A stretch of 20,000 nucleotides of DNA from Psammoneis japonica (GCA_008632985.1 QPGO01000294.1:49906-69905), one strand, 5' to 3'; positions 1 through 20,000 are shown, numbered from the stretch's first letter. The notes: a model not told the origin generated them from the sequence alone. Made by a program: numbers and translations.

Positions 1-1388
1 GTCGTTTTTGTGCACGATTTGGGTCACGTGCGGCTGGAACACGTCTTGGTCATCTTCCAGGAAGACAGATGCCAGGATTTTGCCGGTGCCCTGATTTCCA
101 TCGCAAGGAAGTGCAGCGGTGTCGGGGACTTCTTGATGACTGCATCATCAGAATGATCATGTTTACTGTGCAGTCGAGTCAGTCTCTGGCAACCGTTGCC
201 AATTGGAGCATTTGATCTAAACTGCGACACAACAGAGGAAACAATCAATTTTGTTTTGATCACTCTTTGGAAGCATTGCGGATGTCGCTTTTCCCATGTT
301 TTAAGACAGCGGTCGTTTCAAGGAGCACCGCGTGGTGTCTTGTTTCAATCCCCAAAGGCGGCAGCTCACTGGGTCGGCGGTTGAGTGTGCAAGCAGGAAA
401 TGTGTCCCCGGCAGTGGGAAGAGCAGTGGAGTCTGTCAAAGAGAGACAGCACAGCTTTAGAATCGTCCAACAAAACACCTCTGGCGGGTGAATTCAGCCA
501 AAAGGTCATGAAAAGCTCCACCGGCATGCACTGCACGACAGCTCATGGTGTTAAAAAGGAAGCAACCAAGACGACCTTGACCTCTTGGAGAAGCCTGTTG
601 GCTGCTCTGCTGCTGGTGCTGCAGGCCAGATGACTTTACAACACGAAACATGACAAAAGTCGTCACCTTGTGCGCGTTGCCATTTCCAGCCAATGAAATC
701 CAAAGTGGCATCATTTGGAATGAAGAGTGGAGTCGAGTTGTTGTTGGCTTGATTCCAATTTGCACGCCCAACGGATGCACCGTAACTGATGCTTCAATTC
801 TGCTAGAGTCAGTGTCATGCTGCTGCTGCTGGGAACCACCGCGATCCTAGAACAACACACATTCCAACACCGAGTGAGGTGATTGCACCCAATGGTTGTT
901 GCGTGTTTTTGTTGCGCACTGCTGCAGCACACAACATGAAATTGGCAATGACAGCAGAATCTTTAATGGAGAACAACCAGATTTTTCTTTTGGCAATTGC
1001 ACGTCAAACTTTTTTGGCTGCTGCACTGTAGATCCCTGCTGCCGGCAGTCGGATGGAGACAGGCAGTTTGGCGACCAAACGGCATTTCATGCCAGTGGTG
1101 CACTGCACAACATCTGTTTGCCCTCATCCATTTTAAGCTGCAATTTCATCACCAACTAGATCAAGAACGTCACCGCACCACTGCCATTCCTTCAGTGAAT
1201 TTGGACGTAAGACACAAGACGTGAGCATGTGCTGTTGCTGCAATTTGCTCTGGCTGTGCAGAGGGCATCGTGATCGTTCAAAAGGATGGCAGCGTGCCAC
1301 ACCATCAAAGTTACATTCACCATTGTTGAAACATTCAACAAACGATTTCACCTTGGCAAAGCTCCTCTGATGAGGTCTTGGGTGCCCA

Positions 1389-1990
1389 GGAAAAGATGTG
1401 CTGCGAAAAGTGCTGACTCCAAAAAGCGACGTTGTGGATTTCATCGATTGGCACTGTGGTGAATGTGCGCAAAGCAATGTTGAAAAAGAGCATGCAGTGG
1501 CAATGGCCGTTCAGCAGGGCTGTGATGTCGCACTCATTCACTCACTCCAACATGGGACATGGTGAGCCATTGCAATGGAATCCTTGACACAGAACATGAC
1601 CCTCTTTGTGAGAATGGTGAGGCGGAATTCTCGGCATCAGATCTTCCAAAACGATCCGTCAAGGCAAAGAAATGTGCACAACCTGTGATCTGTACATTGA
1701 CTGTGGAGATGTGGTGACTGTTGGGGTGTGGCTGAATCCCCAGCTCTGGATCTTTCCCAATCACGGTGTTTGCTTCGAAGTGGAAGGGTGCTGTGACGAA
1801 AGCAAAGAATTCGAACTTGACATTTGGTTGGAAGTGGAGCCTGAGCACCCAGGAAAGGATGCACTTGGATTGCCAGAAAAAAGTCTTTTTCTTCAGCAGC
1901 ATCTCAAGGAATTTGAAGAAAAGAGGGATTCAGACCTCAAGGCTGGAGGATCTGTGCCAAAAATGAATGGGATGTTTTACAGTGCAGTTC
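1389..1990 (+). pseudogene. Decayed SET-domain (LSMT/SETD3-SETD6-like) methyltransferase gene fragment
   Basis: Joining frames gives GKDVLRKVL...AVAMAVQQGCDVALI/PTWDMVSHCNGILDTE.../IRSSKTIRQGKEMCTTCDLYIDCGD...PQLWIF. This matches the SET signature LIPxxDMxNH followed by A(S/T)RxIxxGEE(I/L)xxxY. There is an 8-bp insertion at 1539-1546 and further frameshifts. The 5' boundary is uncertain and may extend to ~950. Confidence 0.65.
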
Positions 1991-4900
1991 TTCAATGCAA
2001 AATCAGACACAACAGAAGCTGTGCTTGAGTGGTTGGAGGAATGCGACAACAAGCTGTAAGGTGTTTTAAAGCTCCGCCTCACTGCAACTTGTCTCTTGAG
2101 GAGATTCACAAGCGGAAGAAATTTCTGGATCCCTGTGGCATGGAAATGCTCAGACGAGATTGTTGAACGACTTGTGGGTGAACAGGTCGATGAGGTCAGA
2201 GGACTGTCTTTGCTGACAGCAGCATTGGAGCTGGCTTGGTGGCTTGTCATGCCCTGGATGAGGCAGGACTCATTTGCAAATGTCTTGACATCAACAATGC
2301 AGTCAAGACAAAGAACAAGAAGATTGTGTGGTGTCAACTGGGGGATGCCACAAACGAAGAAAAACAAAGGCCTCATTTGTCAGTGCTTCACTTTGAGCAT
2401 GCAGCTGGACCAAACCTTCAGACAGAATGCCATGAAATGATTCTGCTTTTGCCCCTTTACTTTGGAGAGGGAGGCACAACCAGCGATGCTGTCTTGGACG
2501 CCAGCACACAATGGCAGGCCATTGGGAGAGTGTTTGGACCCGGACAGAGCAGCCCGGTTGTCAATCTCTTCAGGATTGAAGTTCGTGGTCCCAACGATGA
2601 AGAGTGCCTTGATGGTCAGCCAATTTGCCAAAACACTGACAAGGAGACAATCGTGATGGCAATCAATGCTGGGGATGAATGAAGATCATGTGGTGTTTGC
2701 TGCAATTGTTCTCAGTCAGTGTTGATCTGTTTGGCACTTGCTTGTTCCTCCTTCTGATGCTTCAGATGAAGTCCTTCCTCAAATCATTGTTGTCCAAGTT
2801 GACTCTGCCCAGCCTTGTTGCCTGGAACCACACACAAAGAGAACATCATTTGAGAAACATCCAGACTTGTTTGGTCTGCTGCAACTTAGAAATGACTGGC
2901 TGCCTCAACACTGCATCTGTTGTGTGCAAAGTGTCAATCTTGACAACAAACTGGGTTTCACAGAAATGGTGCTGGGAGAAGAATGTGCCCAAAGCCAGCA
3001 ACTCCAGCTGCTGTGGTGTGCATTCAGAGTCAAAAGAGCAGACAGCTGGGGGGGGGGATTGTCAAAAATCTAACTGCAGCAGGGTCTCCACATCTTTCAG
3101 CTTGATCTGTGGACAGCCAATGGCCTCCCCCTGCAGAAGTCCCCTTCACACACTTTTGCAGGATTGGATGCTGGTGTGCTGATGGCTCAGATTTGCTCAA
3201 GCACAGGCTTTTCCCCAGAGAGCCACCTGCTGCCAGCATTGTCACATTTTGAAGAGTTTTTGCCACACCATTGATTGAGTGCCAAAAGAGTGAAGAGGAA
3301 ACAAAAATCTCCAATGCCAAGGATCAGGCAACACATTTTCAGGCACCCCCCTGGCAGATGACTTGATGCACCCAGACATGACTTGCCCATGAGATTGTTC
3401 ATTTTGCTGCAAAGAGGCCCCACATGCACCATTGCTCAGCAAGCCATGCCCTCTGCTTGCAAAAGAAAAATGTCCCTGCACACACCAGTGCAAAAGCAAA
3501 TGTGGTGGATTTGAAACACAGGTGTGAACAGCACACAATCAGGCAAAGGCAATTCATTGAAGAAGCCAACCGTTTTTTTGTTCTGCAGCTTGTCAAGACT
3601 CACAATCAAGGCCTCTGTTCTTGGCACAATTGCCGCACCAAACACAGAGACAGGACAGCCCCAATTGTCAGCATGCAGAGCTGCACTCACCTGCATTGGA
3701 GCCACATGTTCTCCCACACAACAATGAAAAAAATTGAGAAAGACAGTCACCATGTGCTTCTTTGAGAATGTGCTGACATGGCTTTGTGAACAAGCCACTG
3801 CAGGTTGTGCTCAGAAAAACACCCCTCTGCCTGACAGATGGTGGCTTGCATTTGTCACAGATCAAGCCAAAAATGGAAGTCCACAACTTGGACATCATGC
3901 ACCACTTTGCCAGCTCTGCATCCTTGCATTTTTAGAGCAAACAGTGTTGCAGCATGGCCAGGGTTGGTGGGGTTTCAAGTTTGGGTCAGGGGACAGAGAG
4001 TGGAAATTTTCTGGCAAAACTTGAAGCATGTGTGTGACCAAGCAAGATTCCATCTAAAAAGTTAGTCTGTGACATGACCAAGTTAATCTGCTGTGAGGAG
4101 CCAGCACCCAAAATGCTTGCCACAGGTGGCATGGTGCCAACAAGAACAACAGCGCCATCAACACAGGCTCCCATGCTAAGAAATGTGTTGTTTCTTTTGC
4201 TCAGAGCACTGCTCCAATGTTTTCCATCACTCCCATTGATTGCACAACAACTCCTTTGAAACACAAGAGCTTCCTTCCTCCAAAATGATGCAGCCACCTG
4301 AGTTGATGCACTCATGTCCAGTGCCATGGTTGCTGCAAGCGCCTGCCCCTCCAATGACTCCCTGGTGTCATGTCCCATTGACTGAATGACCATGTGGCTC
4401 TTCTGAAACACAACAGCTTCTGCCTCTGAAACAACATTGCAGCTGCCAGAACTGAAGCACTCATGCCTCCCACAGATGCCAGCACAAGCCCACCCCTCCA
4501 ATGTCTTGCAGCCATGGTGTTGAAAACATTCCAAGAAAGACACAAAACATGCATTGCAAGGAGCAAGAACCTCATGCTGAGCTCCAGCCATCAAGCTGTC
4601 TTCATCCATCTTGACATTCAAAGTCCAGCCAGTGCTGCATGCTGTGAGCTGAGTGAACCACTGTTGCTGGTGCTGGAAGCACCAGAGACAAACGAGCTGA
4701 AACACAGTCACATGTGCTGGCACCATTTCACCTGAAAAAAGGACAGAGATTGTGCATGAGCATGCCCCACTGGCAATCAACAGACTGCACCCAAGACTCA
4801 ACTGGCAGCTGGAACGTCATGATTCAGCAGCGTGGTTGTGAGCAAATCTGGATGGAGAGCCATGTCACAATTGGTGATTGGTTGACACATGTGAGTCGAG

Positions 4901-5451
4901 TGGTGCTGCAGCAACCCGCTCACAATCCAATCAGGTTTGGGCTGCATTGACAGTGTTGCCACTTTCCATTGGACGCAAGGTGTCGCACTTGTTCTTTCGT
5001 TGCATCAAGATTTATTGCTTTGTCAGAGCCAAGACGAAAAAGACAGAACAAAATGGTTTCAAACACAACTCGTCATGGACGATTGTTTGTTGTGTTGTTT
5101 GCATGGAATGTGCAGCTGTAGAAACGGTGCTGAACTGTGCGCGATGCGTCAGAATTCGGATTGATGCGCATGAAGATGCGTCTCGTGTCGCTTGTCATGA
5201 TGTCCACAAAACAGCTTGCAATGGCAACACTTGCAATGACAGTCACTGTCCTCACATGTGTGATGGGTGTGAGGGGACTGCGGCATTGGGCGACATGCCC
5301 GAGCCTGTGCTCAATGATGTCGGTTGACATGAACGACACAGGACTGATCACCCTGACGTCGGGTGGCTGTGTGAACCCATCATCACAACACAGAGAAAGT
5401 GCAGCTGCCGTGACCATGCAGACTCACAGCTGTGTGTCCCCAATGCGGAGG

Positions 5452-6227
5452 ATGGCAGCAGTGGCAGCACCAGCAGCAGCACTTGTGGCATTGGCCGCGG
5501 CAGCTGACATTGACGCAGTTTTGCAAGTTTGTGGTGTTGCTGACCAGAACGCAAGGGCAAGGTTGGTTTTCTACGAAGGGTTCATGACTTTGGAAAACAT
5601 CGCAGTGATGGAGAGTGACCATGATGTGGAAGATGTGGTGCAGAGGGCATCTTGTCACACGGTGGCCGACGGACGCGTGACTCTGGGACTGTTCAGATCA
5701 AGAACTTGCAGGCGCTAGCATGGTGGTGCCAGGATTTGCTTGAATGGAACCAGCCATTGGTTGCGGCAGACTTTAATGCAGCAGCCATGGCTGCGGCCCG
5801 GGATGGCAGGCGCATCAAAAAGGAGCGCACGGACTTGGACGCGTCGGCAAGCGGCCTCGTGAAGTTTGAGCCTGATGATTTTGATGTGTGCGAAGACGCT
5901 TTCTTGAATCTCCTGGCACAGAAGTTTGGCGTGTTGAAAGATCCCCTTTGCCATGTGGCAAGGATGATGCCAGCTCCGGCTGCATTCGCGGACACCCAAC
6001 AACAGCGCATGCACCAGACACCTTTGAATGGTGCCGCATGTGACGAGGACAACCGCAGCGTTTGTCATGTGTTGAAGGAACACTTGGTCGACATGGCAGG
6101 ATGGGCATGGATCAAACCGTTTGACGCAACAGAAGATGGGCGTGGAGCATTCAACGCATGGGTTGACCATTGCAACGGACAGGGCGAGTTGAGCAAGCGC
6201 ATTCATCTGGCTGTGGCAACTGTTGAA
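5452..6227 (+). pseudogene. gag: Copia gag, N-terminal and central part (frameshifted, interrupted)
   Basis: ATG at 5452 opens MAAVAAP...DGRVTLG. A 1-bp frameshift at ~5686 continues as TVQIKNLQALAWW...PLCHVAR...DNRSVCHVLK...GWAWIKPFDATEDGRGAF..WVDHCNGQGELSKR, which I recognise as CoDi-type gag. Similarity is lost after ~6227. Confidence 0.8.
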
Positions 6228-6415
6228 ATGACGTGTTCCAGTCCCAGGTGACACACAAAATGACAATCGATTTTGAATGTAAATTGTGCATCTCTCAGTG
6301 CATGAAGCACTTTCACACAAAATGCTCAGGAGGATTGGCTTTTACAGGCATCTGGAGCATGAACAATTGTGAAGAATTAAACAGTTTTTTGTGGGGTGTT
6401 GAATTCCTCATGGGA

Positions 6416-6615
6416 NNNNNNNNNNNNNNNNNNNNNNNNNNNNNNNNNNNNNNNNNNNNNNNNNNNNNNNNNNNNNNNNNNNNNNNNNNNNNNNNNNNNN
6501 NNNNNNNNNNNNNNNNNNNNNNNNNNNNNNNNNNNNNNNNNNNNNNNNNNNNNNNNNNNNNNNNNNNNNNNNNNNNNNNNNNNNNNNNNNNNNNNNNNNN
6601 NNNNNNNNNNNNNNN
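6416..6615. other. Assembly gap (200 N)
   Basis: Run of N; the true length is unknown. Confidence 1.
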
Positions 6616-7088
6616 AAGCGCAAGATTTCCAAATGAGCCATTGTGGTGGCGGTGGCCACGGCTTTTGTTGAGGTCGTGGTTGCGGAGGAAGATTTGGATG
6701 TGGGGGCGGACGTGGACGTGGTGGTGGACGCCAAGGTGGAGGGGGCGACCACACTGCTGTGCTCAATGGAGCAGATGTGTCCGACCCCACAAGGAGCTTT
6801 AGCGCTCAAGAATGGGAAAAGTTGCAGTGCAATGGAGGCATGAGCTGCATGTTCCAGGCTCGCGAACGAATGGGTCATGGACGCGGTGGTGGCCGTGGGT
6901 CTCCCGCAGGTCGCGATGGGGGCGGCAGGCATGCAGCTGAAGCCCGAGTCCATCAAGATGGCCAAGACCAAACCCAACAACAGGATCAGGAGCAAAAGAG
7001 CAGCGGGCGTGGTCGCGGCGCTGACCGTGATCGCGGTGGATGCAATGGACGCACCTTTGGTCGGGGAGCCCATGATGGTTCCACCTGA
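6616..7088 (+). pseudogene. gag: Copia gag C-terminal RGG-rich region
   Basis: GR/RGG repeats flank LNGADVSDPTRSFSAQEWEKL and end FGRGAHDGST* (TGA 7086-7088). The internal TGA at 6669-6671 and several TGT/TGC codons are consistent with decayed Arg (CGN) codons. Confidence 0.75.
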
Positions 7089-7097
7089 CTCCTTGGG

Positions 7098-10000
7098 GTG
7101 GCAACAGCTGCTGGAGCATTGGCGCATTTGGCACACTTGTCGTTTTTGCTTGTGCCACTCTTCTTGCTCTTGACTCGACCCCACCCAATGTCTCGTTTCA
7201 AAGGAAAGGCGACAAAGAGACACATTGCTGTAACGTCAAAACGTGTGATCCGATCGATGAGTTCTGCACAGATGACAAATTTGATGACACCTGGGTTCAT
7301 TGCTCGAAATGAATGTGACACTCACGTGGACACTTGTTGCACTGGAGCGAACTGGAAACTCATGGAGTTGACGAATGAAGTGTGCAAAGTGCACCCATTT
7401 CTGGACTCTTGTGAGCCGATCAAACAGATTCCTGTGGCACGTTGTTGCACCGCACGGACAGATCCGGAAACGACTCGTGAACATTTGCTGGTTGGTGATC
7501 AAATGCTCTGGTTTGGAACCGACACGGAACATTCACTTTTGAATCCCAACCAACTCCGTGCGCACAACATGCCCGCACACGACAACCCTTGCAACACTCG
7601 AAACGGATTTGGCATTGAAGCTGACGAAGCTTTCATCCCTTTCAATGCCACGGGGACAATTGTGTCTTTCAAGTCTCGTGTTCCAACGGATTGGGAAGTG
7701 CAGAACTCACCGGTCATGCTGTTGACAGGTGACACATGGGATCCAGCACAGACAGACATGGGCTCACCGGAGCGCACTGGAGCGCAGGCGGAGATGCGTG
7801 CCATTCGATCATTGAACTCTGGCATGTGACAAGAAACGCTGGGGCAAGGTCAAAATGCAACTGTCATCAATGTCCCCCATCTGTCAACTTCAATTGTTTT
7901 GGGACAGACTTGTCAGCTCAGTTGATGTGGCTTGCACATGTCGCGACGACGTGGACAAGAGGCAGATGGCAGTCAAAGATTTGCACAGCAAGGATCGACA
8001 CTCAAAAGTTGACGCTGAAGAGTTGGCTCGGAAATGGAGTGTCGGCTTAGAAACGGCAAAAGACACTCTCAACGTAACTGCTCAGCGCGGTGTGCGAACG
8101 GCGACCCAGCCGATGTCACGAAGAGTGAGGGTGGATCATCTTGACTTGCATCGGAAGCGTCTGAAAGGAACATGATTTGTGGATGCTTTGACATCCAAGG
8201 TGAAGTCCTCACTCGGCAACACGTGTGCCAATGTTTGCACTCAGGGCAAATTCGTGAAGGTTGTGCCGATGACCGCCAGGTCGGAGGCAGGTTTGTCTCT
8301 TGTTGAATTTACAGACGACGTGGGTGCACCAGAACATCTTGTGTCAGATGGGGCAGGAGAGTTCACCGGAAGGAGCACCGAGTTTGTGAGACACGCACGA
8401 CGCATGAGGATGCAATTGAGAACATCAGAACAGGGCCGAAAGAATCAGAATCAGGCAGCGGAGCACGAAATTGGTTTCTTGGCCAAGCGCTGGCGGCTGC
8501 AGATGACAAAGAAGAAGGTGCCAAAGCGATCATGGGACTTCTGTCTTGTTTGCAAGTCGGAACTGGTGTCGCGCATGGCAAGAGGCAGAGACAAGAGGAC
8601 TGGACATGAAGAGGTCACTGGACAGACACCGGAAATGGGCGAGTGTTTGGACTTTGGTTTCTGTGACATGGTGTGGTGGTGGGACAGGCCCAACAAGCCA
8701 AATGCAACAGACGATCCTCGAAGGCTTGGACGGTGGCTTGGCATCTCTCACAAAGTTGGCTCGGACATGCGCCATTGGATCATTGCGGAAAGCGGGAAGA
8801 TTGTCTCCAAAACATCCGTTGAGCACGTGACACAGGCTGACATGGTGCAACCGGACATTTGTGTCAAGGTCGACAACTTTAATGAGCAGCTGGAGAAGCG
8901 ATTGGATGATGCCAACTTTGTCTCAAAGGGTGATGAAGCAGCACCCCCATTTGTGTTGGACGATCTTGCAATTGACGGCAACTCTGGTGTGGAATGTGAG
9001 GGCAGTGTCACGCCAGAGGACAAGGAACATGGCGACATGCCATTGCCCGACGAGCAACCAGACGACAATGATGAGCAGGCAATCGATCAACACCTGGGAA
9101 TGGAACTTGTGTTTGACATCGGAACCGACGGCAAGCAACGTGGTGTTGCAACGAAACCTGCAAGAGGACAGGATGGGCGTCCAGTTGGGACTCGGCATCA
9201 AAACCCATTGTTTGACACTCGCGAGTGCGAAGTGGAATGTGCCGACGGAACCACAGATGAGCACACAGCCAATGTCATTGCCGAGAACATGTTTGCTCAG
9301 GTTGACAGCAAAGGCAACCAGTGTTCTGTCTTGCACGAGATGCAGGACCACAAGAGGAGTGACGATGCAGTGTCAATTGCTGACGGTGCCGTGCGAACCG
9401 CTGACGGGAAGGAGAAGAAGAAGATCACAACAAAAGGGTGGAAGTCATTGGTCGGATGGAAGGATGGCAGCTCATCTTGGGTCAAACTCAAAGATCTGAA
9501 GGACTCCAACCCCATTGAAGTTGCTGAGCATGCTGTTGCGAACAGGTTGACGGAGGAACCTGCTTTTGCTTGGTGGGTCACACATGTCCTGCGCAAACGG
9601 AATCGCATTGTGTCCAAGGTTAAGAAGAAGCACTGGTGCATGACTCACAAGTTTGGGGTCTGATTGCCCAAGTCAACGGAGGATGCTCTGCGGATAGACC
9701 AGGAAATGGGGACAGATCATTGGGCTCGTGCAATCAACAAGGAGATGGCAAAGGTGAAGGTGGCATGGCGCGAGCACGAGGCTGAAACCCCTCAAGTCGT
9801 CCGGGAAGGCAAGAGTGCAACTTTGCGTGGTTGCAAGGAGATCAGGTGCCACATGGCATTCGATGTTAAAATGGATTTCACCAGAAAGGCAAGGTTTGCA
9901 GCTGGCGGACACACGACAGAGGCTCCGGCATCGATCACTTGTTCTGGCATGGTTTCCAGAGACAGTGTGCGACTTGGATTCTTGTTGGCAGCTTTGAATG

Positions 10001-10950
10001 GGATCGACATTGCAGCGATTGTTCTGGAGAGTGCTTGTCTCAATGCACCGTGCGCAGAGAAGATGTGGTTTGAAGGCGGAAAGGAATGCAGCGAGTGTGA
10101 AGGAAAGGTGCTTGTTGTCACTTGGGCGATTGATCTGGAGAATGCTTGTCTCAATGCACCGTGCGCAGAGAAGATGTGGTTTGAAGGCGGAAAGGAATGC
10201 AGCGAGTGTGAAGGAAAGGTGCTTGTCATCACTTGGGCGTTGTGTGGCTTAAAGAGCTCGGGACACTCGTGGAGGTCTGCACTGTCATCGGTCTTGCGTG
10301 ACTTGGGCTTCGAATTGACGAGAGTGGATCCGGATGTCCACTTGCGTGCGGCGACTCGTGAGGACGGGCATGAGCATTGTGAAATGCTTTTGGTTCATGT
10401 CGATGACACACTGATCATTTCCCATCAGGGGAAGTCCATTGTTGCTGCAACAGGTGAACACTGTGCCGTGAAGCCCGGCAGTGAAGGAGAACCAGAAGTT
10501 TGTCTTGGGGCCAACGTTGAGAGGGTTCAGACTCAGGATGGGCGCACGATTTGGGCAAGTTCACCGAGATCACATGTTAAATCGGCGATTGAGACTGTGG
10601 AAGGCCTGTTGGATGAAGACGGCAATGGAGAGGTTCTGAAGAACAGTGCAAAGGATCCACCACCCCCAAAATGCAAACCAGAGCTGGACGTGACGGACGA
10701 GTTGGGCCCCGACTTGGTGGACAGGTGTTTGCAGCTGACAGGGATTTGTCGTTGGGCGATCAAGTTGGGTCGCATCGACATCTTGCATGAGGTCTCAATC
10801 TCATCTCAATGTCAAGCCAACCCGAGGAAAGGACACCTTGAGGCATTGTGTCATGTGTTTGCGCACATGAAGAAGCACCAGAATGTTGGGCGCATCGGAT
10901 TTGATCCAAAGGAACCGGTGATTGATGAATCCATTTTTAATTCAAATGCA
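7098..10950 (+). pseudogene. pol: Copia pol: aspartic protease (~7300-7750), integrase (~7990-8850), chromo-like segment (~9425-9580), reverse transcriptase (~9700-10950)
   Basis: The ORFs 7098-7829, 7855-8175, 8179-9663 and 9664 onward join through one frameshift (~7827-7855) and in-frame TGA stops at 8173 and 9661. The RT catalytic motif reads HVDD at 10396-10407. RNase H is absent. Confidence 0.93.
10018..10239 (+). repeat. In-frame 111-bp tandem duplication inside RT
   Basis: 10018-10128 and 10129-10239 are near-identical (4 mismatches seen), with GCG at each boundary. The peptide IxLExACLNAPCAEKMWFEGGKECSECEGKVLVxTWA occurs twice. Confidence 0.97.
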
Positions 10951-11019
10951 ATTAATTTCACTCTGTGTGGGGGGGCATGGCATTTGGACAATCCAAACAT
11001 GCCGGTTTGTGCCGTCAAG

Positions 11020-12768
11020 AAATGTTCGCGTTGTGGTGCAAAAACACTTGGGACGAAGAGATTTTGTCTGAAAATGAAGACAGTGGCAAGCAAAATTGAC
11101 TTGCACGAATCTCACAAACAAGACTTGCCTCTGTGTCAGTCACGTCGCGGTGCTGTTTTCTTTGGTGGGGAATTTCAGCTGCTGCCTCCCGCAACACCTG
11201 CGTTGTTGCCTCCGTTTTCCCGTCTGTGTCCAATGCACGTGTTGGGCCACATGGAAAACCCATTGAAAATGTCTTTGAGAGCAGTTTTTCTACAAGGCAA
11301 CGGAACTCAAGCGACTCAATCATGCCCATGCATCCAAAGTGGACAACACAACATTGCGGAATTCGATGAAGGCAAGGAAGATGTGAAGGAGTTGCTTCAA
11401 GATGCTGTTGCAAACACCAAGCAAGTCAAGAATGGAAGCAGTTTCAAAAGTTGGGAAAGCTTGAAGATGCGCTTTGCATTGGCACGAACCGACTTGTTGC
11501 TGCAGCGCTGTTCCACTGGACCTTTCTGCCTCCTTGGCAACAGCACGCGATTTCTTTGTCATGCGCGACACTCTCTGCTGCAGCTGCCAGAGCTGGCTCT
11601 AGCTGCTGGAGCAGAGGACAGAGCTGCAACACTGCTTCTAACACTGTCTGCTCTAGAGAGATCGCCTTCGAGAGATTCGTGTTCTCAGCCCCGAAATGAA
11701 ATGATCTGATTGGGCAAACAACGTCCGTGCGGCTCTCAAACTGACATCATTGCTGATGCATTTGCTTGAAGCGCGTGAACAAACATGGAAGATTGACGGC
11801 CAAAGCCAAACACATGACAGTGGACAGGCATTGCATGTGGAGAGGCAACGACGGTCGCGCCTTTGCAGTGTTTTGGAACCTGGTGTGTCGGACAAATGTT
11901 CGCATCGTGGTGCAAAAACACTCGGGACGAAGAGATTTGGTCTGAAAATGAAGACAGTGGTGAGCGAAATTGACTTGTGTGAATCTCACGAACAAGACTT
12001 GCTGCTGCATCAGTCGTCGTCGCGGTGCTGTTTTCTTTGGTGGGGAATTTCAGCTGCTGCCTCCCGCAACACCTGCATTGTTGCCTCCGTTTTCCCGTCT
12101 GCATCCGATGCACGTGTCAGGCCACAAGGAAAACCCATTGAAAATGTCTTTGAGAGCAGTTTTTCTACAAGGCAACGGAACTTAAGCGACCCAATCATGC
12201 CCATGCATCCAAAGTGGACAGTGCAACATTGCGGAATTCGATGAAGGCAAGGAAGATGTGAAGGAGTCGCTTCAAGATGCTGTTGCAAACACCAAGCAAG
12301 TCAAGAATGGAAGCAGTTTCAAAAGTTGGGAAAGCTTGAAGATGCGCTTCGCATTGGCGCGAACCGACTTGTTGCTGCAGCGCTGTTCCACTGGACCTTT
12401 CCGCCTCCTTGGCAACAGCGTGCGATTTCTTTGTCATGCGCGACACTCTCTGCTGCAGCCACCAGAGCTGGCTCTAGCTGCTAGAGCAGAGGACAGAGCT
12501 GCAACACTGCTTCTAACGCTGTCCACTCTAGAGAGATCGCCTTCGAGAGATTCGCATTCTCAGTCCCGAAATGAAATAATTTGATTGGGTGAACGACGTC
12601 CATGTGGCTCTCAAACTGATGTCATCGCTGATGCATTTGCTTGAAGCGCATGAATGAATGTGGAAGATTGACGGCCAAAGCCAAACACATGATGGTGGAC
12701 AGGCATTGCATGTGGAGAGGCAACAATGGTCACGCCTTCACAGTGTTTTGGAACCTGGTGCATCGGAC
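11020..12768. repeat. Tandem duplication of a ~875-bp unit of unknown origin
   Basis: 11020-11893 aligns end to end with 11894-12768 at offset 874-875. Differences are mostly transitions among CG/TG/CA/TA dinucleotides. Confidence 0.97.
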
Positions 12769-14473
12769 AGACTCTGTCAGGACTGACACAGGTTCTTGTG
12801 GCAAACTTGGGCATTGCTGCGAGTGCAAACCGATCACGCTACAGACGAGGAATGCACGGGAGGCAAACTGCACTCATTGTCCTCTCTTGCTTTGGCATCG
12901 AAAGCTGTTCTTGACGTTGGAAATCTTGGTTTCTCTGTCACTTGAAGGGCACACAAGGTCAGAATGCGAGTGCTTGAAACTGATGAAAGCAAATGCTGTG
13001 TCTTGGAGAGCGCACTCGGATCGACTGTGTGAAACGTAAAACCACTGTTGCACGAATCTCGATGGCTCTTGAGGGGCTGTTTCAGCTGCCAGAACAACTG
13101 TCAAGGCTTGGAGAATTGCCTCATCTGCAGAAGCACCGCAAGAGAGATGTTTCTAATGGGGAACACGTCAAGCGCAACAACCGCCAACAGTCAGAGACGC
13201 CTGCATCATAAAAACTTCGTCTCATGTTTGGATTTGATGAAAATCACATGTCTGCATCATGTTCCGAGCAACTCGAATGAGAGAGGCTTGGAGGACTCGA
13301 GAAAAAACGCTTGTCGACCCGACTCGACGCTTTGACATGTTGCAAACGACATGGGATGACCACAATGGTGAGCCTTGAGAATGCCGCAGTCCTGTCATTG
13401 TCGCCAGCAATCGCAGATGGGGCTGCAAAACAATGTGTAGATTCCCCTTGTTGCATTTCTTCATTCATGTTCATCTGTCAAAAAATGGAAATCAAAATCT
13501 GAAAAAAGAGTGTGAGTTACAAAGCATGACTCAGCAAGACGGTCACAATCGCAAACTCAACAAAACAGATCTTCAAACGCTGTGGGACGTGGAGAATGTG
13601 GCTGATGCAATGGGCCGGCGACCCACAGGAGCATTGAGCCTGTGGGGGTTCAGACATGAGATGCTCAATGAGCAACTCAAGCGGTCTGAACCACCTTGCA
13701 ACCTTCACGAAAAAGGCTGCCCTTTGGGGCATCAAGCACACCGTCTTGGTCCACGACGTCGACAGGCGTTCAGCGTGCATTCAAAGAAAGAAAGCAGAGG
13801 CTGGCCCTCCTCTGATGGAGCCAATGCATCACAGTGCACTCAAAAGCACACTGGCTGGCTCTCACCACTGCCGCATTGGACGTTTGCAAGCATTCAGTGC
13901 ACACGCAAGAAGCGAGTTTGCTGGCAATCGTGGTGCATCTCCGTCGGAACCACGGACTGCTTTGACAGGCAATCGTCATTTCACCTCAAACCGACTTCCA
14001 AAGATGTGTGCAATCTAACGCACAGAGGAAAACCATCAAGGACCCAAGCCTTCAGGTCCACCTGGCAATCGTGTGTGGACAACATTCAATGACTTAACTC
14101 CAGCAGATCTAATTCGCAACAAGAGCGAGACGATTGACTCACCGTCGGCAGAGAACTGACGCAACCATGACAATCAAGAGAGCAATGTGTTTCAAAAGGT
14201 CAAATGGCGTTTTTTGTGTGCTCCGTGCAACAATGAGCAAAGTGATTTGGATTTCACTTGTCCCGAGCCTTGACGCTTGACGTTTCGAATTTTTTTGAAA
14301 TTGTGGCGGGAAAACCAACAGCTTCTTTTGCCATCACATTTTGTGTGAAACTCATGCGAACACCGATGACGTCTGCCAAACGGAGAATCTTTCGAGCTCC
14401 GAACTCCAAGATTTCCTTCCATCCGCCACATCCGCAGCACATGCCACATCAAGCATCACATTCATTTTGTCAT

Positions 14474-14528: not shown

Positions 14529-14576
14529 TTCGTCCTTGTCTGTTTTTCAACGACATTGAACCCAACACTCAACAGC

Positions 14577-15548: not shown

Positions 15549-15688
15549 ACGCCAAGATTTCCTTCCCTCCGACACCACCACGCTTCACTGACAGAGCCTG
15601 CGACACTTCACATGCATGCCACATGATGCTGCCACATGCAACGTCATGCTCAACAGCAACAACAACAGGAACAAACAACGCAACAACG

Positions 15689-16712
15689 ATGTCGTCACTT
15701 CCAAGAGCAGAAGAAGCAACACGGTGTGTTCGTGCGACAAACAAACGCCACTGCACAAATGAAGAGACAAGTCGAGTGCTGATGCTGCAGACCGCATTCA
15801 GAAGTGGCAGCATTGACAATGAAGCCACCCTCGTTGACCTGAAGTCTCGACTGGACTCGACTCCGCTTGCTCTCGTGGTGGCTGTGACATCCTTTGGTGG
15901 ACCCAGATGCAAATCTCTCCTTGACGATTTGCCTTTGCTCAAAAAGACTGCGCCAGTGGTTCTGCTTGCTGTGGTTCTGCCCCGTCAAACCCCAAATTTT
16001 GATTTTACATGCCGATCGAATTGGGCTTGAACGAGACACCGTGTCTGTCGCAAGCATTCGCGCCAATCTTCAAGAGATCAGCAGCAGCAATGGAGGGGGC
16101 TGCTGTCCCTTTTAGCACCAGCAACACCAAGAATCCTTCCGTGTGCTGTCCTGACGGTTCATTGGATCCCAGTTCCTCTCCCACCAACCCCTTGGATGTG
16201 CTGCGATTGGTGCAACAATGGGCTGCACGCTGAAACAAATCACCAAGGCGTTGACGGATTCCAATTTGGGTCTGGGTTGCGGCTTGCGGCAATGCCACGA
16301 GCTTTGCCAGCCTGCTTGAGAATGAGACAGTTCTCCATTTGTGAAGTGGCGCTGGAGTCCATTGCTTTTTGGCTGCCGACGTTGTGGGACCGTCCTGCAC
16401 TTTCATTGAAGTGTCGACATGAAACCCCACATGTTTTACAAGGCACGAACTCATGCCAACAAGAAGAAGACGACCAATGTCGAATTCCATTTGGGAGCGA
16501 TGGAACACCTTCCCATGGCCAACGGCCCAGTGGATTGTGCTGTGAGCAATTGCATCATCGATCTCAATCCTGACAAGCCGCAGGTGTCTCGAGAAATGCA
16601 CCGCATTCTCAAACGGGGTGGTCGCATTGCTGTGTCGGACGTCGTGATTCGCCCTGAAAAGATTGTGCCCGACACCCCATTTTGCTTCAAGACGGCCGAA
16701 GCGATGACATGC
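15689..16712 (+). pseudogene. arsM: Arsenite S-adenosylmethionine methyltransferase (ArsM/AS3MT family) pseudogene with a long N-terminal extension
   Basis: Core 16203-16712 reads MGCTLKQI..DSNLGLGCG/NATSFASLLENETVLHL*SGAGVHCFLAADVVGP..I/VDMKPHMFYKAR..NVEFHLGAMEHLPMANGPVDCAVSNCIIDLNPDKPQVSREMHRILKRGGRIAVSDVV. This follows the ArsM motifs LGLGCGNP, DLGSGAG.DC, GVDM and SNCV.NL.PDK. Lesions: 7-bp duplication TTGCGGC (16284-16290), stop at 16342, frameshift at ~16411. Assigning 15689-16200 to the same gene is less certain. Confidence 0.88.
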
Positions 16713-16912
16713 ATTCTCCCCGCAACTTGTGCGGACGAAGCCTTTTGATCCATGTGGGCAGAGTTTGAATGGGAAACAAGGTGACCATTCCAACGTTGGT
16801 TCCCAACTTGTTGGTTTTTCTCCATGACATTCTGTCGAGTCGACCAACATGCGTTGCCTCACTCTGCACGACACGTTGGAAACGGGAAGCTTCCTCACCG
16901 CCAATCTCTGCG

Positions 16913-17700
16913 CAAGACAGTGCTTGTTCTTGAGGCACGCTTGCCGATTGTTTCCCGGTGCGGCTTCGTGTTGAACACTGCGCAATGCGCTTTTTCACAG
17001 TGTCTGTCAATGCCGGGAGAAAGAAACTTCTCACAAAACTGTTGGCACCGACAAGGTGTCTTGCGACGTGTGCAGCACTGTTGCAAGCACGGGTGCGCAC
17101 CCGAGTTAGATCAGTTCTTTTGGGCACTTTTGCGCATTGGTGCATCATGTCTGTTTGCTGACACAGCTCAAGTTTCGCAGTCGTTAAACCGTCAACTAAC
17201 TCAAGCGCGCTCTGTTGCTTTTGCAGTGTCTTTGGTGAAGATGCTCTCATTGATGAGAAGGACAACAACGATGGCAAGTTGGCTGGGTGCATTCGGATTC
17301 GTTCCAAGACAGTGCTTGTTCTCGAGGCGCGCTTGCCGATTGTTTCCCGGTGCGGCTTCGTGATGAACACTGCGCAACAGGCTTTTTCACAGTGTCTGTC
17401 AATGCCGGGAGAAAGAAACTTCTCGCAAAACTGTTGGCACCGACAAGGCATCTTGCGACGCATGCAGCACTGTTGCAAGCACCGGTGCGCACCTGTGTTA
17501 GATCAGTCCTTTCGGGCACTTTTGCGCGTTGGTGCATCATGTCTGTTTGCTGATGCAGCTCAAGTTTCGCAGTCGTCAAACCGTCAACTAACGCAAGCGT
17601 GCTTTGTTGTTTTTGTAATGTCTTTGGTGAAGACGCTCTCGTCAATGAGAAGAAGGATGACAACGACGGCAAGTTGGCTGGGCACATTCGGATTCGTTCC
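16913..17700. repeat. Tandem duplication of a ~392-bp unit of unknown origin
   Basis: 16913-17304 aligns with 17305-17699. Both begin CAAGACAGTGCTTGTTCT and end ATTCGGATTCGTTC; copy 2 has 3 extra bases. Confidence 0.97.
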
Positions 17701-18465
17701 ACAACACAATGAACTGCTCTGAGTTTGGGAGACAGCATCACCAGCGTTCAGAGATCCGTGCCCGAAGCCACGCAGTAAAACAAACGATTGGAATGGAGCT
17801 CACAGAGTGTGTTCTGAGCCACAATGGCACTTTTTTAGCATTGCACTGCGTGAATTAGCCCTGCCACAATCCTTTCTAACGTGTGAACAAAGCCATTCCG
17901 TGATGCCAACACTTGCCTGACATTCTTCCACAATTCATTCTCCACGTCCGAAATGAGCAAGGGTTTGGTCCATTGACTGCCACGGGTCTTGAGCAAATGC
18001 AGAGTCGCCATGACGTTGAGGCACCAGCCATGCCTGGCGCACATTTTGTTTCGTAAAACACAAGTCGCGGGGCGGGACCCACTGTGACTTGAACCTTGGC
18101 ACTCAAACAAAGACTGACTGCCGAATGAAAGGTGTGTTTCTGTGTTGTTGAAACAAAGATGAAAATCAATGCCAGCAAGCATGTCTCGAATGAAAGCAGA
18201 AATGGGCACGAAAAACGACTTGCGTTGACGGTGCACTCGAATGCAACGTGACACAATGAACGCACCCCATGGCATTGTGAATTGCAGGACAAACTTGTGC
18301 ATCAATGTTGGCGAGTCTTTGATGTGCACAAAAGCTGCTTGTGATGTGAAATGGAAGAAAGAGATGCCCCCATGCATGCTTGATTTCCAACAGTGCAAAA
18401 CAAGCATTCAATGAGTCTGGCGGCGACTGATGATCCTTGCGGATCTGTGCACAACACTCCCAGTT

Positions 18466-19173
18466 TTAGATGAAAGACACTGCCCGTTGCTCCACGAGCC
18501 CAGGCAAGCTTCTCAAAGAGACAAGACGGGCCACTTTCTCCTCGTTTCTCACAACAACAACAGTGCCCACCAGATTGACCTTTTTGTCTGGCAACTCCGC
18601 ATTTTGCACTGACCAATCATCCACAGGTTCCTCCAAATTGTCCATTGGTTCTTCCACATCTGGTGGATCATTCAAGGAATCATCAGGCTCCTCGTCTGCT
18701 GCCACAATGACTTCCCCCTTGATGACAGAATTGTCATCAACAGCAACAGTGGGATCAGACAATGGTTCTTCTTCACCCTCTCCTTCTGGGACAATGCCAT
18801 GCTGCAGCAACCCATCACCCACAGGATCCTCCAAATCATCCATTGTTGGCACATCCGCATCTGGTGGATCATTCAAAGCATTGTCTGGCTCCTCACACCC
18901 TTCAACATCTGCATCCACTGGAGCAACTTCCTCCTTGGTGACAGGATCATCATCAACAGCAATGGCAAAATCAGCAATGGGTTTCACAATCACTGCATCA
19001 GCTGGAGCAAAAATGGCCTTGACCAGTTCAATTGCCACTGGAGTCCACACCCCTTCATGCCAGTGATCACATCTTGGGTGTGGCTGACATTTGCAAGTGT
19101 GTTGGATCTGTTGTTTCCACTCAAACTCAAGCAGGGCTGCAGTCAATTGCTGGTCATCCAACACAGGTGTCAC
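18466..19173 (-). CDS. Acidic, Pro-rich low-complexity ORF with a two-copy internal repeat; probably a decayed gene
   Basis: 235-aa ORF rich in D/E/P/V. The unit AVDDxxVxKxEV...EEPDxxLNDPPD...MDxLExPVxD occurs twice. Confidence 0.4.
   Translation of the reverse strand: MTPVLDDQQLTAALLEFEWKQQIQHTCKCQPHPRCDHWHEGVWTPVAIELVKAIFAPADAVIVKPIADFAIAVDDDPVTKEEVAPVDADVEGCEEPDNALNDPPDADVPTMDDLEDPVGDGLLQHGIVPEGEGEEEPLSDPTVAVDDNSVIKGEVIVAADEEPDDSLNDPPDVEEPMDNLEEPVDDWSVQNAELPDKKVNLVGTVVVVRNEEKVARLVSLRSLPGLVEQRAVSFI
18605..18966. repeat. Diverged direct repeat (~150-165 bp, two copies)
   Basis: 18605-18750 resembles 18803-18966. Shared cores are CATCTGGTGGATCATTCAA, CCACAGGxTCCTCCAAAT and TCATCAACAGCAA. 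Confidence 0.85.
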
Positions 19174-20000
19174 ACCAGTGGTGCATCAAGGGATCTGAAG
19201 TTCTCATGGAGCAACCACACCAGCTGGGGCTGGAGGAGCATTGCCAGTGCAAATGTCTCAAAGCAGCACTTGGTCCAGTCTCCATCCAATCTGACTGCAA
19301 CCACACAGTCTTGCACTTCAAGAGCAGCAGAGCCACATGGGGGCACAAACCAAAAGGGAGCACATGTGGCACAGTGCATGGTCCACACAGCCACTGCAGC
19401 TGCAAGAGTGGCCGCAACAGCATCACATGCTCAACCACACAGAAGAGTCATCAGGTCATCAATGTCCACAACTTGGTGGTGGTGCAAGCAACAGACATTG
19501 CTGCCAACCAACTTCAACACCAAGCATGAGAACATCACAGCACACAAAGCGAGGCAAACTTTGCAGAACACAATGACAAAGGACACAACAGTGTGAGTTT
19601 TGCACCAAAGCTTGTCCACAGCAATGCACAGACTCCAAAGGAAACCATTGGTGATCCGGCCATGGCTCTGCTTGCCACCAAATGTGCGCAGCAGGAGGTT
19701 CATGAAAAGAGCATGATCAGGTGCAATGCATGGTGCAGCCACAACTGGGCAATGGCATCAGCAAAGACAGATCAACAGCAGGGCATTTCAACTCAACAGA
19801 AGTTGGATTTTTGTGTGGTGAGCAAGATGCTTGCTTGTTGTTGCAGCTGGCGCCATTTGTGCTGTGGTCTGTGCTGGAGAAACACACAGAAAAGCAGACA
19901 GTCAGTCATGTGTCAGGCCCATTTGCGCTCTGTTCCTTGCAGGCTCTCTTGGTGAAACAATCAGAGGTTGGGGCCAATGTTGAACTCATTCACAATGATG

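Follow-up and report, generated by a model that had tools for sequence, protein, structure and literature searches.

Probable DNA-level, TpA-targeted A:T to G:C hypermutation in a tract of silenced repeats

The locus described here raises a simple question: what process could strip nearly every TpA step from 20 kb of DNA and leave CpA and TpG in excess? The window (the whole stretch of 20,000 nucleotides that was analysed) is a single tract of this kind.

1-20000, unstranded: whole window, an unbroken TpA-depleted, CpA/TpG-enriched tract with no boundary inside

Loss of TpA across the window

An earlier note, made from the sequence alone, had described TpA as almost absent (about 90 in 19.8 kb, with more than 1,000 predicted) and TG and CA as in excess, and the counts bear this out. 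The window contains 88 TA against 1198 expected from base composition (observed/expected 0.07; TpA frequency 0.0044, i.e., 88/19,800), together with 2077 TG against 1225 (1.70x) and 1997 CA against 1219 (1.64x), while CG reaches 759 against 1246 (0.61x). The local counts of that note, 12 TA in 7200-10960 and none in 18475-20000, were likewise accurate, the final TA being found at 18467. The deficit extends to all 1-kb bins, each with 0-10 TA vs 35-68 expected, and is restricted to TA, since the other AT-type dinucleotides do not behave in the same way (AA 1.19, AT 0.89, TT 1.26 observed/expected).

As a baseline for TA, 80 related copia loci from public metagenomes were used, with a median observed/expected TA of 0.69, a lowest locus of 0.38 and a lowest 1-kb bin of 0.32. 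From this baseline about 957 TA are predicted for the window, and the Poisson probability of finding 88 or fewer is about 3e-288. No tract similar to the window was found among these 80 loci, none of which falls below 0.38; the locus with the lowest TA still has 15 of 17 Tyr, and its decay is confined to CpG. The TA deficit of the window is therefore confirmed as real, and about nine tenths of the TA steps in this dead mobile-element DNA have been rewritten to TG or CA. As two of the three stop codons are gone from TA-free DNA, many long false open reading frames arise (54 frames of at least 120 codons in 20 kb), which can mislead gene prediction.

The preferred explanation, which is held to be probable, is that a silenced repeat tract was hit by a DNA-level, TpA-targeted A:T to G:C hypermutation of the type known from the chlorarachniophyte Bigelowiella natans. 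The window would consist of silenced repeated DNA: a Ty1/copia remnant, further repeats and the dead second copy of a cellular methyltransferase gene. Hypermutation would have set in once these had arrived and some duplication had taken place. It would then have turned A:T into G:C at 5'-TA-3' steps, with either strand hit at any given site, giving TG or CA independently from site to site.

Direction, strands and timing of the changes

The best-characterised part of the window is a copia-type retrotransposon, whose features are the following.

4670-11339, plus strand: high-copy element, a copia-type retrotransposon remnant of approximate extent (summed contig depth 1000-4470 vs 60-450 in most other bins)
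6416-6615, unstranded: 200-N assembly gap within the high-copy element
7089-11706, plus strand: dead Ty1/copia gag-pol, with open frames 7089-7826, 8176-9660 and 9664-11706

An RVT_2 domain is recognised at about 10126-10440 (E 1.6e-08, 34.9 bits vs a Pfam gathering cut-off of 31.6), while intact relatives score 60-77 bits. The search for gag-pol homologues gave 430 sequences with a top identity of 60%; among the 120 listed, four are named, namely three diatoms (Fragilaria, Nitzschia, Thalassiosira) at 43-50% identity and a bacterial metagenome-bin label, and none bears the name of Bigelowiella. The diatom names agree with the probable diatom origin proposed in the earlier note. All 120 have a Tyr content of at least 2.47%. 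The three gag/pol frames of the window, 1422 codons in total, have no Tyr at all, which agrees with the earlier remark that about 1,280 codons of pol lack this residue.

The relatives align to 7179-11028 and allow the changes to be polarised. At 25 Tyr columns conserved in 119 relatives the window has 12 Cys (TGY), 10 His (CAY), 2 Phe, 1 Val and no Tyr, so that 22 of the 25 are now TGY or CAY, almost solely by A>G and T>C; a smaller alignment of 13 relatives gave 9 Cys, 4 His, 3 other residues and again no Tyr at 16 conserved columns. In an equivalent test on nine related loci, 184 of 208 Tyr were kept, with 0 Cys and 3 His. Other conserved residues are mostly retained in the window (Lys 18/18, His 11/11, Asp 35/37, Gly 40/42), with Ile kept at only 7 of 18 positions (5 Ile>Met, 3 Ile>Thr). 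Judged from these alignments, the direction of change, from TA to TG or CA, is confirmed. The same direction had been read in the earlier note from 12 motif strings, all of which are present, and the codons it placed at 10396, 10243 and 9940 lie there.

6165, plus strand: DHCNG
8524, plus strand: KRSWD
9892, plus strand: RFAAGG
9931, plus strand: SITCS (TGT at 9940)
10057 and 10168, plus strand: EKMWF
10141, plus strand: NACLNA
10237, plus strand: ALCGLK (TGT at 10243)
10366, plus strand: GHEHCEM
10396, plus strand: HVDD
10402, plus strand: DDTL
10804, plus strand: SQCQA
10843, plus strand: ALCHVFAHM

The catalytic YVDD box, which reads HVDD at 10396, is not intact, the gag-pol frame is broken at 7826/8176 and 9660/9664, and neither a repeat search nor self-blastn revealed an LTR pair in the window; from its sequence the element thus appears to be non-functional. 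Selection against TA was rejected as an explanation, because the changes wreck invariant catalytic residues.

Both outcomes, 12 Cys and 10 His, lie on a single sense strand of the element, and they form 13 runs along it, with about 11.9 expected. Long one-strand processivity was rejected on the basis of these runs and of a TG:CA balance that is mostly even in 500-nt bins, the exceptions being 10001-10500 and 18501-20000. The presence of A>G (12 Tyr>Cys) together with T>C (10 Tyr>His) on one strand also bears on a different scenario, in which an ADAR- or APOBEC-like activity hyper-edited the element's RNA or cDNA during retrotransposition, so that copies were damaged before they were inserted. 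This would suit the LTR retrotransposon that is the best-characterised part of the window, and the retroelement intermediates of animals are well known to be hyper-edited (PMC4866542). A single strand with both types of change argues against this scenario, as does the rest of the window, where the flanking repeats and a methyltransferase gene copy of cellular type, broken by frameshifts, are equally TA-free over 20 kb. Moreover, ADAR is not known outside animals.

15740-16712, plus strand: arsenite-methyltransferase-like SAM methyltransferase pseudogene, of a cellular gene type, with frameshifts, in-frame TGA stops and TA depletion

This pseudogene is matched by NF008823, arsenite methyltransferase (E 2e-29), and by Methyltransf_31 within 16410-16745 (E 6.3e-17). 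A tblastn of three homologues (P0122-P0124) spread it over three frames and revealed two Tyr>Cys changes and one Tyr>His, and other copies in the sample bear TA or CG at positions 16314, 16428, 16515, 16517, 16521, 16554 and 16598. Its closest match in the protein collection reaches 63%, and an unmutated paralogue is absent from that collection. As for the remaining sequence, 86 of the 102 stop-to-stop frames of at least 90 codons were scanned with Pfam, which gave only sub-threshold matches beyond RVT_2 and the methyltransferase fragment. Frame 18613-19593 had no homologue at E <= 0.001 among 657 candidates, frame 13379-14089 had one weak match (E 5e-05) over a 21-residue stretch, and an Rfam and tRNA scan of the window gave no matches.

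Three tandem duplications make it possible to follow the changes after the sequences had been copied.

10015-10236, plus strand: tandem duplication of 111 nt (37 codons) in the reverse transcriptase, 96% identity, 3 differences including one TG<>CA double
11020-12769 (11020-11894 and 11894-12769), plus strand: tandem duplication of about 875 nt, the internal clock, 92.2% identity over 876 nt
16913-17701, unstranded: tandem duplication of about 392 nt, 90% identity

The 876-nt pair differs by 16 TG<>CA doubles, 23 CG/TG or CG/CA changes and 3 TA/TG or TA/CA changes, the remainder being 5 other transitions, 4 transversions and 1 indel. Hence 42 of 52 events are transitions of the TA or CG type, and just 9 substitutions belong to neither type, while the loss of TA is near-complete; in the proposed process, TA conversion would have reached about 90% completion against about 1% of ordinary substitutions between the copies. 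The pair of about 392 nt has 6 TG<>CA doubles, 9 CG-type changes, 2 CA/TA, 5 other transitions, 7 transversions and 3 indels. Taken over the duplicates of the window, adjacent TG<>CA doubles account for 23 of 87 events, whereas the 66 control alignments, made from unmutated relatives, have them in 125 of 9335 (odds ratio 26, p = 1.5e-22). Such a double may also result if one CpG decays to TG in one copy and to CA in the other, a route by which, given the control ratio of 125 doubles to 2545 singles (CpG-type changes being 2545 of the 9335 differences among environmental relatives), about 1 of the 16 doubles in the 876-nt pair is expected. The doubles therefore indicate that each TA site was converted on its own, on one strand or the other, once duplication had occurred. 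Since the three duplications diverged by independent TG and CA outcomes after they arose, editing during retrotransposition is regarded as very improbable. The earlier claim of a near-saturated, TpA-targeted A:T to G:C transition on both strands thus stands, and it is now founded on the alignments of Tyr columns and duplicates.

A sequencing run from the same sample, X1, which is possibly the source of the assembly itself, provided further copies. Its contigs have TA where the window has TG in 8 of 10 listed G>A rows and TA where the window has CA in 2 of 4 listed C>T rows; they have CG in place of TG or CA in 8 of 9 listed T>C rows and 11 of 13 listed A>G rows. Twelve loose-end strings of X1 contain 12 TA per 339 letters by an eye count. 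TA-keeping copies thus co-exist with the mutated tract in the same sample. Other X1 contigs are identical, with 0 differences, to 17003-17359, 18308-18669 and 18648-20000, the last match lying in a contig of 4846 nt, and therefore the window is not a read-level mixture. The summed depth in every bin of the window exceeds the 33-36 of the exactly matching contigs.

These data also concern the idea that a modified base or a polishing error wrote TG or CA for TA. This could find some support in the fact that X1 shares just 52% of sampled 31-mers with the window; even this share would be impossible if X1 held only TA-bearing sequence, because each 31-mer averages, by estimate, more than one former TA. 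In addition, contigs built from X1 give 2 kb of TA-depleted sequence with 0 differences, each site has one fixed outcome, duplicates have different fixed outcomes, and TA-bearing copies of the same families occur in the same data. In B. natans, according to the preprint on that alga, Illumina data of de novo mutations show the same signature (bioRxiv 10.64898/2026.01.13.699255). A technical artefact is accordingly considered scarcely credible.

Sequence context, CpG decay and candidate chemistry

The hypermutation preferred here depends on the bases that flank the TA step, with conversion in the window following the order TAY >> TAG > TAA. The survival of TA is 0-3% for ATAN, 1.5% for GTAC, 8% for CTAC, 15% for GTAA and 31-37% for CTAA, TTAA and CTAG, measured against a context baseline of copia relatives, although two thirds of the window consists of sequence of another kind. 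The net TA-derived products by 3' base, obtained by arithmetic from the same table, are about 576 TGC, 249 TGT, 100 TGG and 0 TGA. On the product side, the His:Cys ratio by preceding base (8:5 after a purine, 2:7 after a pyrimidine; p = 0.099) lends slight support to TAY; 4 of 10 listed TA-type differences to other copies run counter to the preference, and GTAA survives about twice as often as a multiplicative half-site model predicts. As read from these site counts, a three-base preference, TAY (RTA on the other strand), goes beyond the first reading of the locus. In the proposed mechanism hardly any TAY/RTA would escape conversion, TAG would escape more often, and TAA would be the least affected.

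Alongside the loss of TA runs a decay of CpG, which was absent from the first reading. CpG is also nearly absent in two zones, with 2 CG vs 60 expected in 3001-4000 and 6 vs 64 in 19001-20000.

2501-5000, unstranded: zone with CpG and TpA both nearly gone (500-nt bins 2501 to 4501: 5, 0, 2, 2 and 8 CG)
18501-20000, unstranded: zone without TA and almost without CpG (strand skew, CA 233 vs TG 138)

Summed from the context table, the TG/CA excess of 1299 is close to the 869 TA sites lost plus the 409 CG sites lost, so that CpG decay makes up about 409 of some 1280 sites turned into TG or CA in the window. It is proposed that this would be ordinary decay of methylated CpG to TG or CA, in parallel with the hypermutation. 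A single dual A/C deaminase behind the CpG loss as well finds no support: of the 23 lost C in the 876-nt duplicate, 10 have a T on their 5' side, with about one third expected.

Sequence alone does not reveal which base of the TA pair is attacked, since both strands read TA at such a step. The candidates named in the earlier note (DNA adenine deamination, a mutagenic modified base at TpA, error-prone repair) remain reasonable. The chemistry may be a conversion of adenine to hypoxanthine, read as G, by a deaminase of the TadA/ADAT2 type acting on DNA, a proposal to which we give slightly less than an even chance. The natural target of TadA/ADAT2, A34, lies, as far as is known, directly 3' of U33 and so in a T-A step; the substrate loop of E. 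coli TadA has the sequence U-A-C-G, and YAC was the preferred site of early base editors, which resembles the TAY of the window. As an alternative, thymine may be the base attacked, if it were oxidised or hypermodified (5-hydroxymethyl- or 5-formyl-uracil, by an enzyme of the TET/JBP type) and mispaired with G to give T>C. Owing to the palindromic nature of TA, a target T in R-T-A fits every observation as well as a target A in T-A-Y; the 5-hydroxymethyluracil of dinoflagellates is concentrated at TpA and TpC, and A:T>G:C is the change favoured by 5-formyluracil. On the other hand, deaminases usually read a strict -1 base and a modulating +1 base, and we know of no thymine-modifying system in diatoms or chlorarachniophytes. 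Adenine deamination is favoured by the authors of the B. natans preprint as well (bioRxiv 10.64898/2026.01.13.699255), and attack on thymine is rated as unlikely. As for the trigger of the hypermutation, silencing or repetition would be the candidates; since in live B. natans the targets are single-copy viral inserts and here they are repeats, the trigger may differ.

Comparison with known systems

The hypermutation of the window resembles fungal RIP in its dense transitions at one dinucleotide, on both strands, and in that unmutated copies can persist; repeats and a duplicated gene are among the sequences killed in the window, so that duplicated sequence may be the target here as well. As the earlier note had correctly stated, its direction is the opposite. 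RIP changes C>T mostly at CpA, makes TpA and leads to AT-rich DNA, whereas in the window TpA is destroyed (0.07), CpA (1.64) and TpG are made, GC goes up, and Tyr codons are lost rather than stops gained. Furthermore, RIP needs a cytosine-methyltransferase-like protein and a sexual cycle. With APOBEC3 and ADAR the window shares the killing of mobile elements by clustered transitions with a strict neighbour-base preference, which in those systems is the work of a host deaminase. Those enzymes act on single-stranded intermediates or RNA and leave a one-strand signature restricted to retroelements; the changes in the window affect both strands, include DNA other than retroelements and were made after duplication. 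Decay of methylated CpG gives equal products, TG and CA, in diatom LTR retrotransposons, but consumes CpG and not TpA; in Phaeodactylum these elements are cytosine-methylated, apparently at CpG (PMC2806351).

TadA, ADAT2-ADAT3 and the adenine base editors turn A into inosine, read as G, and may provide the enzymatic link to the window. Amphioxus ADAT2/3 deaminates both A and C in DNA, although in E. coli DNA its ADAT2 acts on A preferentially in GAA, not in TA as in the window, and on C in TCG, and natural TadA is described in the same source as having no action on DNA (PMC10354150).

The closest precedent is B. natans, in which a preprint describes de novo TpA to TpG/CpA changes in viral DNA integrated into the genome, at about 1000 times the background rate (Mettrop et al., bioRxiv 10.64898/2026.01.13.699255); the statement of the earlier note that no described pathway does this is therefore out of date. 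In two viral inserts, 230 of 231 de novo changes were A>G or T>C, all on TpA, at a rate of about 6e-7 per site per generation in mutation-accumulation lines. The same preprint reports 124 TpA-depleted clusters, a mean TpA frequency of 0.0018 in TpA-depleted predicted genes, among which reverse transcriptase is enriched, and ADAT2-type adenine deamination as the candidate activity (bioRxiv 10.64898/2026.01.13.699255). If the window came from B. natans itself or from a near relative, it would be one of those 124 clusters, and its TpA frequency of 0.0044 is low as well. Such an origin is rated as unlikely: the named homologues include three diatoms and no Bigelowiella, the top identity is 60% although the family is high-copy in the sample, and the absence of the methyltransferase paralogue from the protein collection would point to a genome without annotation, whereas B. 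natans has a public annotated proteome. A literature search found no other report of natural adenine-directed DNA mutagenesis beyond this 2026 preprint.

Natural DNA mutagenesis at adenine is barely documented. Should the host be a diatom, Bigelowiella would not be alone in having the process; the targets, moreover, would extend from integrated viruses to mobile elements and gene duplicates. A tentative extension, possible rather than likely, is an adenine-directed defence, a reverse RIP, common to diatoms and chlorarachniophytes and maybe old in the SAR supergroup, with a T-A-Y motif inherited from the anticodon-loop specificity of TadA/ADAT2 for tRNA. Its trigger would be repetition or silencing and not viral origin, because retrotransposons and a duplicated cellular gene have been destroyed alike. 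The TAY > TAG > TAA motif can be tested, both on the de novo mutations already published and on deaminases that are candidates. Moreover, diatoms are genetically tractable and ecologically dominant, so that knock-outs could lead to the enzyme at work, which might be a natural deaminase of adenine in DNA and useful in base editing.

Compared directly, the window and B. natans share a footprint of low TpA with high CpA+TpG, and reverse-transcriptase genes among the depleted ones; the process, local in B. natans, may be local here too, as other copies in X1 keep TA. They differ in that B. natans, a rhizarian, offers a live process on two inserts, one from a giant virus and one from a virophage, both single-copy and still only mildly depleted (rho TpA of the NCLDV region, 0.45), whereas the window, from an apparent stramenopile, preserves only the end state, 0.07, in repeats and a duplicated cellular gene. 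The main text of the preprint gives neither a trinucleotide context nor a link to CpG decay, both of which are described here for the window. The window is thus probably a second, saturated case of the process known from B. natans, and so is not without precedent.

Loss of TpA and its direction

The near-absence of TpA described in the earlier note was borne out by counting: with 5138 A, 4746 C, 5251 G, 4665 T and 200 N, the window contains 88 TA where base composition predicts 1198 (0.07), the last at 18467 with none beyond, and every 1-kb bin holds 0-10 against 35-68 expected. The observed/expected ratios are 1.64 for CA, 1.70 for TG and 0.61 for CG, and the remaining dinucleotides lie near 1 (AA 1.19, AT 0.89, TT 1.26). 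As a biological baseline, 80 related copia loci were fetched from metagenomes; the median of their TA ratios is 0.69, and the lowest values are 0.38 for a whole locus and 0.32 for a 1-kb bin. Scaled to the window, this baseline predicts about 957 TA, and the Poisson probability of finding 88 or fewer is about 3e-288. The depletion is a real observation. The stop trinucleotides TAA (44) and TAG (27) are nearly lost while TGA (462) persists, so that the window carries 54 stop-to-stop frames of at least 120 codons, overlapping in all six frames and mostly without a homologue; such long spurious frames in a TA-free tract are a pitfall for gene prediction.

Features located in the window
6416-6615, gap of 200 N in the copia element
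7179-11028, span aligned by copia relatives
9664-11706, copia remnant frame with the reverse transcriptase domain RVT_2 (profile search)
10015-10236, tandem duplication of 111 nt in the reverse transcriptase domain
11020-12769, tandem duplication of about 875 nt at the 3' end of the copia element
about 15740-16712, + strand, arsenite-methyltransferase-like pseudogene, frameshifted and stop-interrupted (Methyltransf_31, E 6e-17; NCBIfam NF008823, E 2e-29)
16913-17701, tandem duplication of about 392 nt

Repeat search and self-comparison of the window detected no LTR pair for the copia element, Rfam and tRNA scans found no RNA genes, and for the rest of the window no family or homologue was found by profile scans of open frames and a homologue search of two frames. 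For the copia frame, 8000 candidates were scored and 430 homologues were obtained at E <= 0.001, the best with 60% identity. Among the best 120 of these 430 matches listed, four are named, three of them diatom proteins (Fragilaria crotonensis, Nitzschia inconspicua and Thalassiosira exigua) and the fourth bearing a bacterial metagenome-bin label, and Tyr content is at least 2.47% in each of these 120. The consensus of the aligned copia relatives also shows some 60 conserved residues, with many Trp and Lys, directly upstream of RVT_2; in five full-length relatives this block matched no Pfam family.

The three copia frames contain no Tyr in 1422 codons, in agreement with the earlier note, whose twelve copia motif strings were all found in the window and whose three codon coordinates were also correct. 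At 16 Tyr-conserving columns of 13 aligned relatives the window has Cys 9 times, His 4 times and another residue 3 times; at 25 conserved-Tyr positions of 119 relatives, it has TGY at 12, CAY at 10, Phe at 2, Val at 1 and Tyr at none. Conserved Lys (18/18), His (11/11), Asp (35/37), Gly (40/42) and Trp (17/18) are kept; Ile is retained at just 7 of 18 positions, with five changes to Met and three to Thr, most of which are as expected from ATA>ATG and ATA>ACA. The same Tyr test on nine related loci, used as a control, gave 184 of 208 Tyr kept, with no Cys and 3 His. The replacement of Tyr by Cys or His relative to the relatives implies that the ancestor had TA where the window has TG or CA, and the direction and target proposed before (TpA to TpG/CpA) were thus right.

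Duplicates and other copies

The order of events can be read from the three tandem duplications, which lie within 8 kb of the window and measure 111 nt, roughly 875 nt and roughly 392 nt. The largest pair differs by 52 events.

Difference events between the duplicates of about 875 nt
Adjacent double change (one copy TG, the other CA): 16
CG versus TG or CA: 23
TA versus TG or CA: 3
Other transitions: 5
Transversions: 4
Indel: 1

TG/CA doubles also make up 6 of the 32 events in the 392-nt pair and 1 of 3 in the 111-nt pair. As a control, 66 alignments spanning 123 kb were made between unmutated relatives of 88-97% identity; there such doubles account for 125 of 9335 events, against 23 of 87 in the window duplicates (odds ratio 26, p = 1.5e-22). 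Opposite-direction decay of a single CpG yields the same double, and the ratio of doubles to singles in the controls predicts about 1 of the 16 from this source. The doubles imply that duplication came earlier and that each TA was converted independently afterwards, on either strand; all three duplications are older than the conversion. On the comparison of these sequences, conversion after duplication and the use of both strands are clearly demonstrated, and the both-strand action proposed in the earlier note holds.

In the large pair, just 9 of 876 columns gained a non-CpG change of another kind while TA was being converted, and ordinary neutral decay is ruled out on this ground. The same low count, together with duplications that preceded independent conversion, argues against editing during retrotransposition, in which a replication intermediate would have been the substrate, and this explanation is very improbable.

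The hypothesis of a technical artefact was confronted with sequencing run X1, which is possibly the source of the assembly and hence not an independent platform; it contains 52% of 1033 sampled 31-mers of the window, and its contigs are identical (0 differences) to 17003-17359, 18308-18669 and 18648-20000. From the window to other copies, the differences are mainly transitions: A>G was counted at 269 places, G>A at 294, C>T at 278 and T>C at 254, with 24-37 per transversion type. Site context was read from the best-supported 40 differences listed, ahead of 1383 further rows: a window TG is the site of 8 of the 10 G>A, where the other copies have TA, and of 8 of the 9 T>C, where they have CG; a window CA is the site of 11 of the 13 A>G and 2 of the 4 C>T; and 4 differences are transversions. 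Contig loose ends leaving the window have 12 TA in 339 letters (counted by eye), an ordinary rate. These TA and CG indicate that unmutated family copies co-exist with the tract, which is probably atypical of its genome and is no read-level mixture. The exact contigs and the TA-bearing copies in the same sample leave an artefact scarcely credible.

In the one sequencing sample containing the sequence, summed contig depth exceeds in every bin the 33-36 of the exactly matching contigs and reaches 1000-4470 over copia, so that the whole window is repeated DNA. A second run of the sample, X2, covers almost only 16676-19343 (depth 178-720), and one of its contigs joins 16917 to 17619, a variant without most of the 392-nt duplication. 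The methyltransferase pseudogene, on which tblastn of three homologues gave matches split over three frames, has Cys, Cys and His at the three alignable Tyr of the homologues; X1 and X2 both contain a copy about 93% identical that retains its TA and CG. A duplicated cellular gene is among the victims of TA conversion.

Context preference, CpG decay and proposed mechanism

Surviving TA were compared by four-base context with counts expected from the baseline of the copia relatives.

Surviving TA by context (expected, observed)
ATAT: 95, 0
ATAC: 167, 0
ATAG: 88, 1
ATAA: 147, 4
GTAC: 66, 1
CTAC: 86, 7
GTAA: 144, 21
CTAA: 78, 24
TTAA: 57, 19
CTAG: 29, 11

Most classes are fitted by a model that lets each half of the palindrome escape on its own, with probabilities of about 0.03 (5' A), 0.12 (G) and 0.6 (C or T); GTAA survives at about double the frequency that this model gives. 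The gain of 1299 TG/CA matches the loss of 869 TA and 409 CG sites. With half of the CpG loss subtracted as the expected per-strand share, the TG gained comprise about 576 TGC, 249 TGT, 100 TGG and no TGA, and the predicted product wins in all six asymmetric TA site classes. Weak trends in the same direction are seen in polarised Tyr codons (His 8 and Cys 5 after purine, His 2 and Cys 7 after pyrimidine; p = 0.099) and at Ile>Met sites, 4 of 5 with pyrimidine next; 4 of the 10 TA-type differences to other copies listed run counter to the preference. Tyr outcomes are unclustered along the copia element (13 runs against about 11.9 expected). In our reading the motif is T-A-Y with adenine as the target, or R-T-A with thymine as the target.

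TA loss is paralleled by CpG decay, the CG ratio being 1.08 in the relatives against 0.61 in the window, where two zones are near zero, and CpG-type changes forming 23 of the 52 events in the 875-nt duplicate. Such decay is the expected fate of methylated repeats and marks the tract as silenced DNA; cytosine methylation, apparently at CpG, has been reported for Phaeodactylum LTR retrotransposons (PMC2806351). There is no good sign of an enzyme shared by the two losses, a 5' T preceding 10 of the 23 lost C. In 66 pairwise alignments of environmental relatives, 2545 of the 9335 differences are of CpG type, which suggests that these copia families are commonly CpG-methylated in their hosts. One relative, the 2137-nt metagenome locus L054, with a CpG ratio of 0.06, a TA ratio of 0.38 and 15 of 17 conserved Tyr kept, is a case of heavy CpG decay without TpA hypermutation. 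Locally, 18501-20000 has no TA, almost no CpG and a strand skew (CA 233, TG 138), and 10001-10500 a smaller reverse skew (TG 63, CA 31).

It is very likely that TpA-targeted hypermutation occurred here at the DNA level. The likely overall reading is that a host process would mark silenced, repeated or foreign DNA and, acting on either strand, turn the A:T pairs in its TA steps into G:C. Chemically, the simplest route would be a TadA/ADAT2-type enzyme that deaminates adenine to hypoxanthine, the natural substrate of this family being the A after U33 in the anticodon loop; this assignment is plausible, though tentative. Thymine-directed modification at TA, inseparable from it by sequence, is an unlikely alternative to adenine deamination.

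Comparison with known systems

The earlier note knew of no described pathway with this outcome, a view overtaken by the only precedent that a literature search for TpA hypermutation returned, a study by Mettrop et al. of the chlorarachniophyte Bigelowiella natans (bioRxiv 10.64898/2026.01.13.699255). In its mutation-accumulation lines, 231 of 302 new substitutions were reported inside two integrated viral regions; 230 of the 231 were A>G or T>C changes, each of them at a TpA, and the rate was about 6e-7 per site per generation. The authors also describe 324 predicted genes depleted in TpA, among which reverse transcriptase and DDE endonuclease are over-represented, count 124 clusters of depleted windows and name an ADAT2 homologue as candidate. 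Origin of the window from B. natans itself is very improbable, given the names of the homologues and the lack of close annotated relatives. Diatoms and trinucleotide context are absent from the main text of the preprint. Amphioxus ADAT2/3 is reported to deaminate A and C in DNA, preferring GAA and TCG (PMC10354150), and a term search of a 2025 survey of diatom transposable elements gave no mention of a signature of this sort (10.1101/2025.10.24.684338). Fungal RIP is a functional analogue working in the opposite direction. The process in the window is thus of a kind described once, in 2026, rather than categorically new, and the window is a saturated, probably diatom case of it. What it adds to that kind is a context motif, a clear case of both-strand conversion after duplication, and a cellular gene duplicate as one of the targets.
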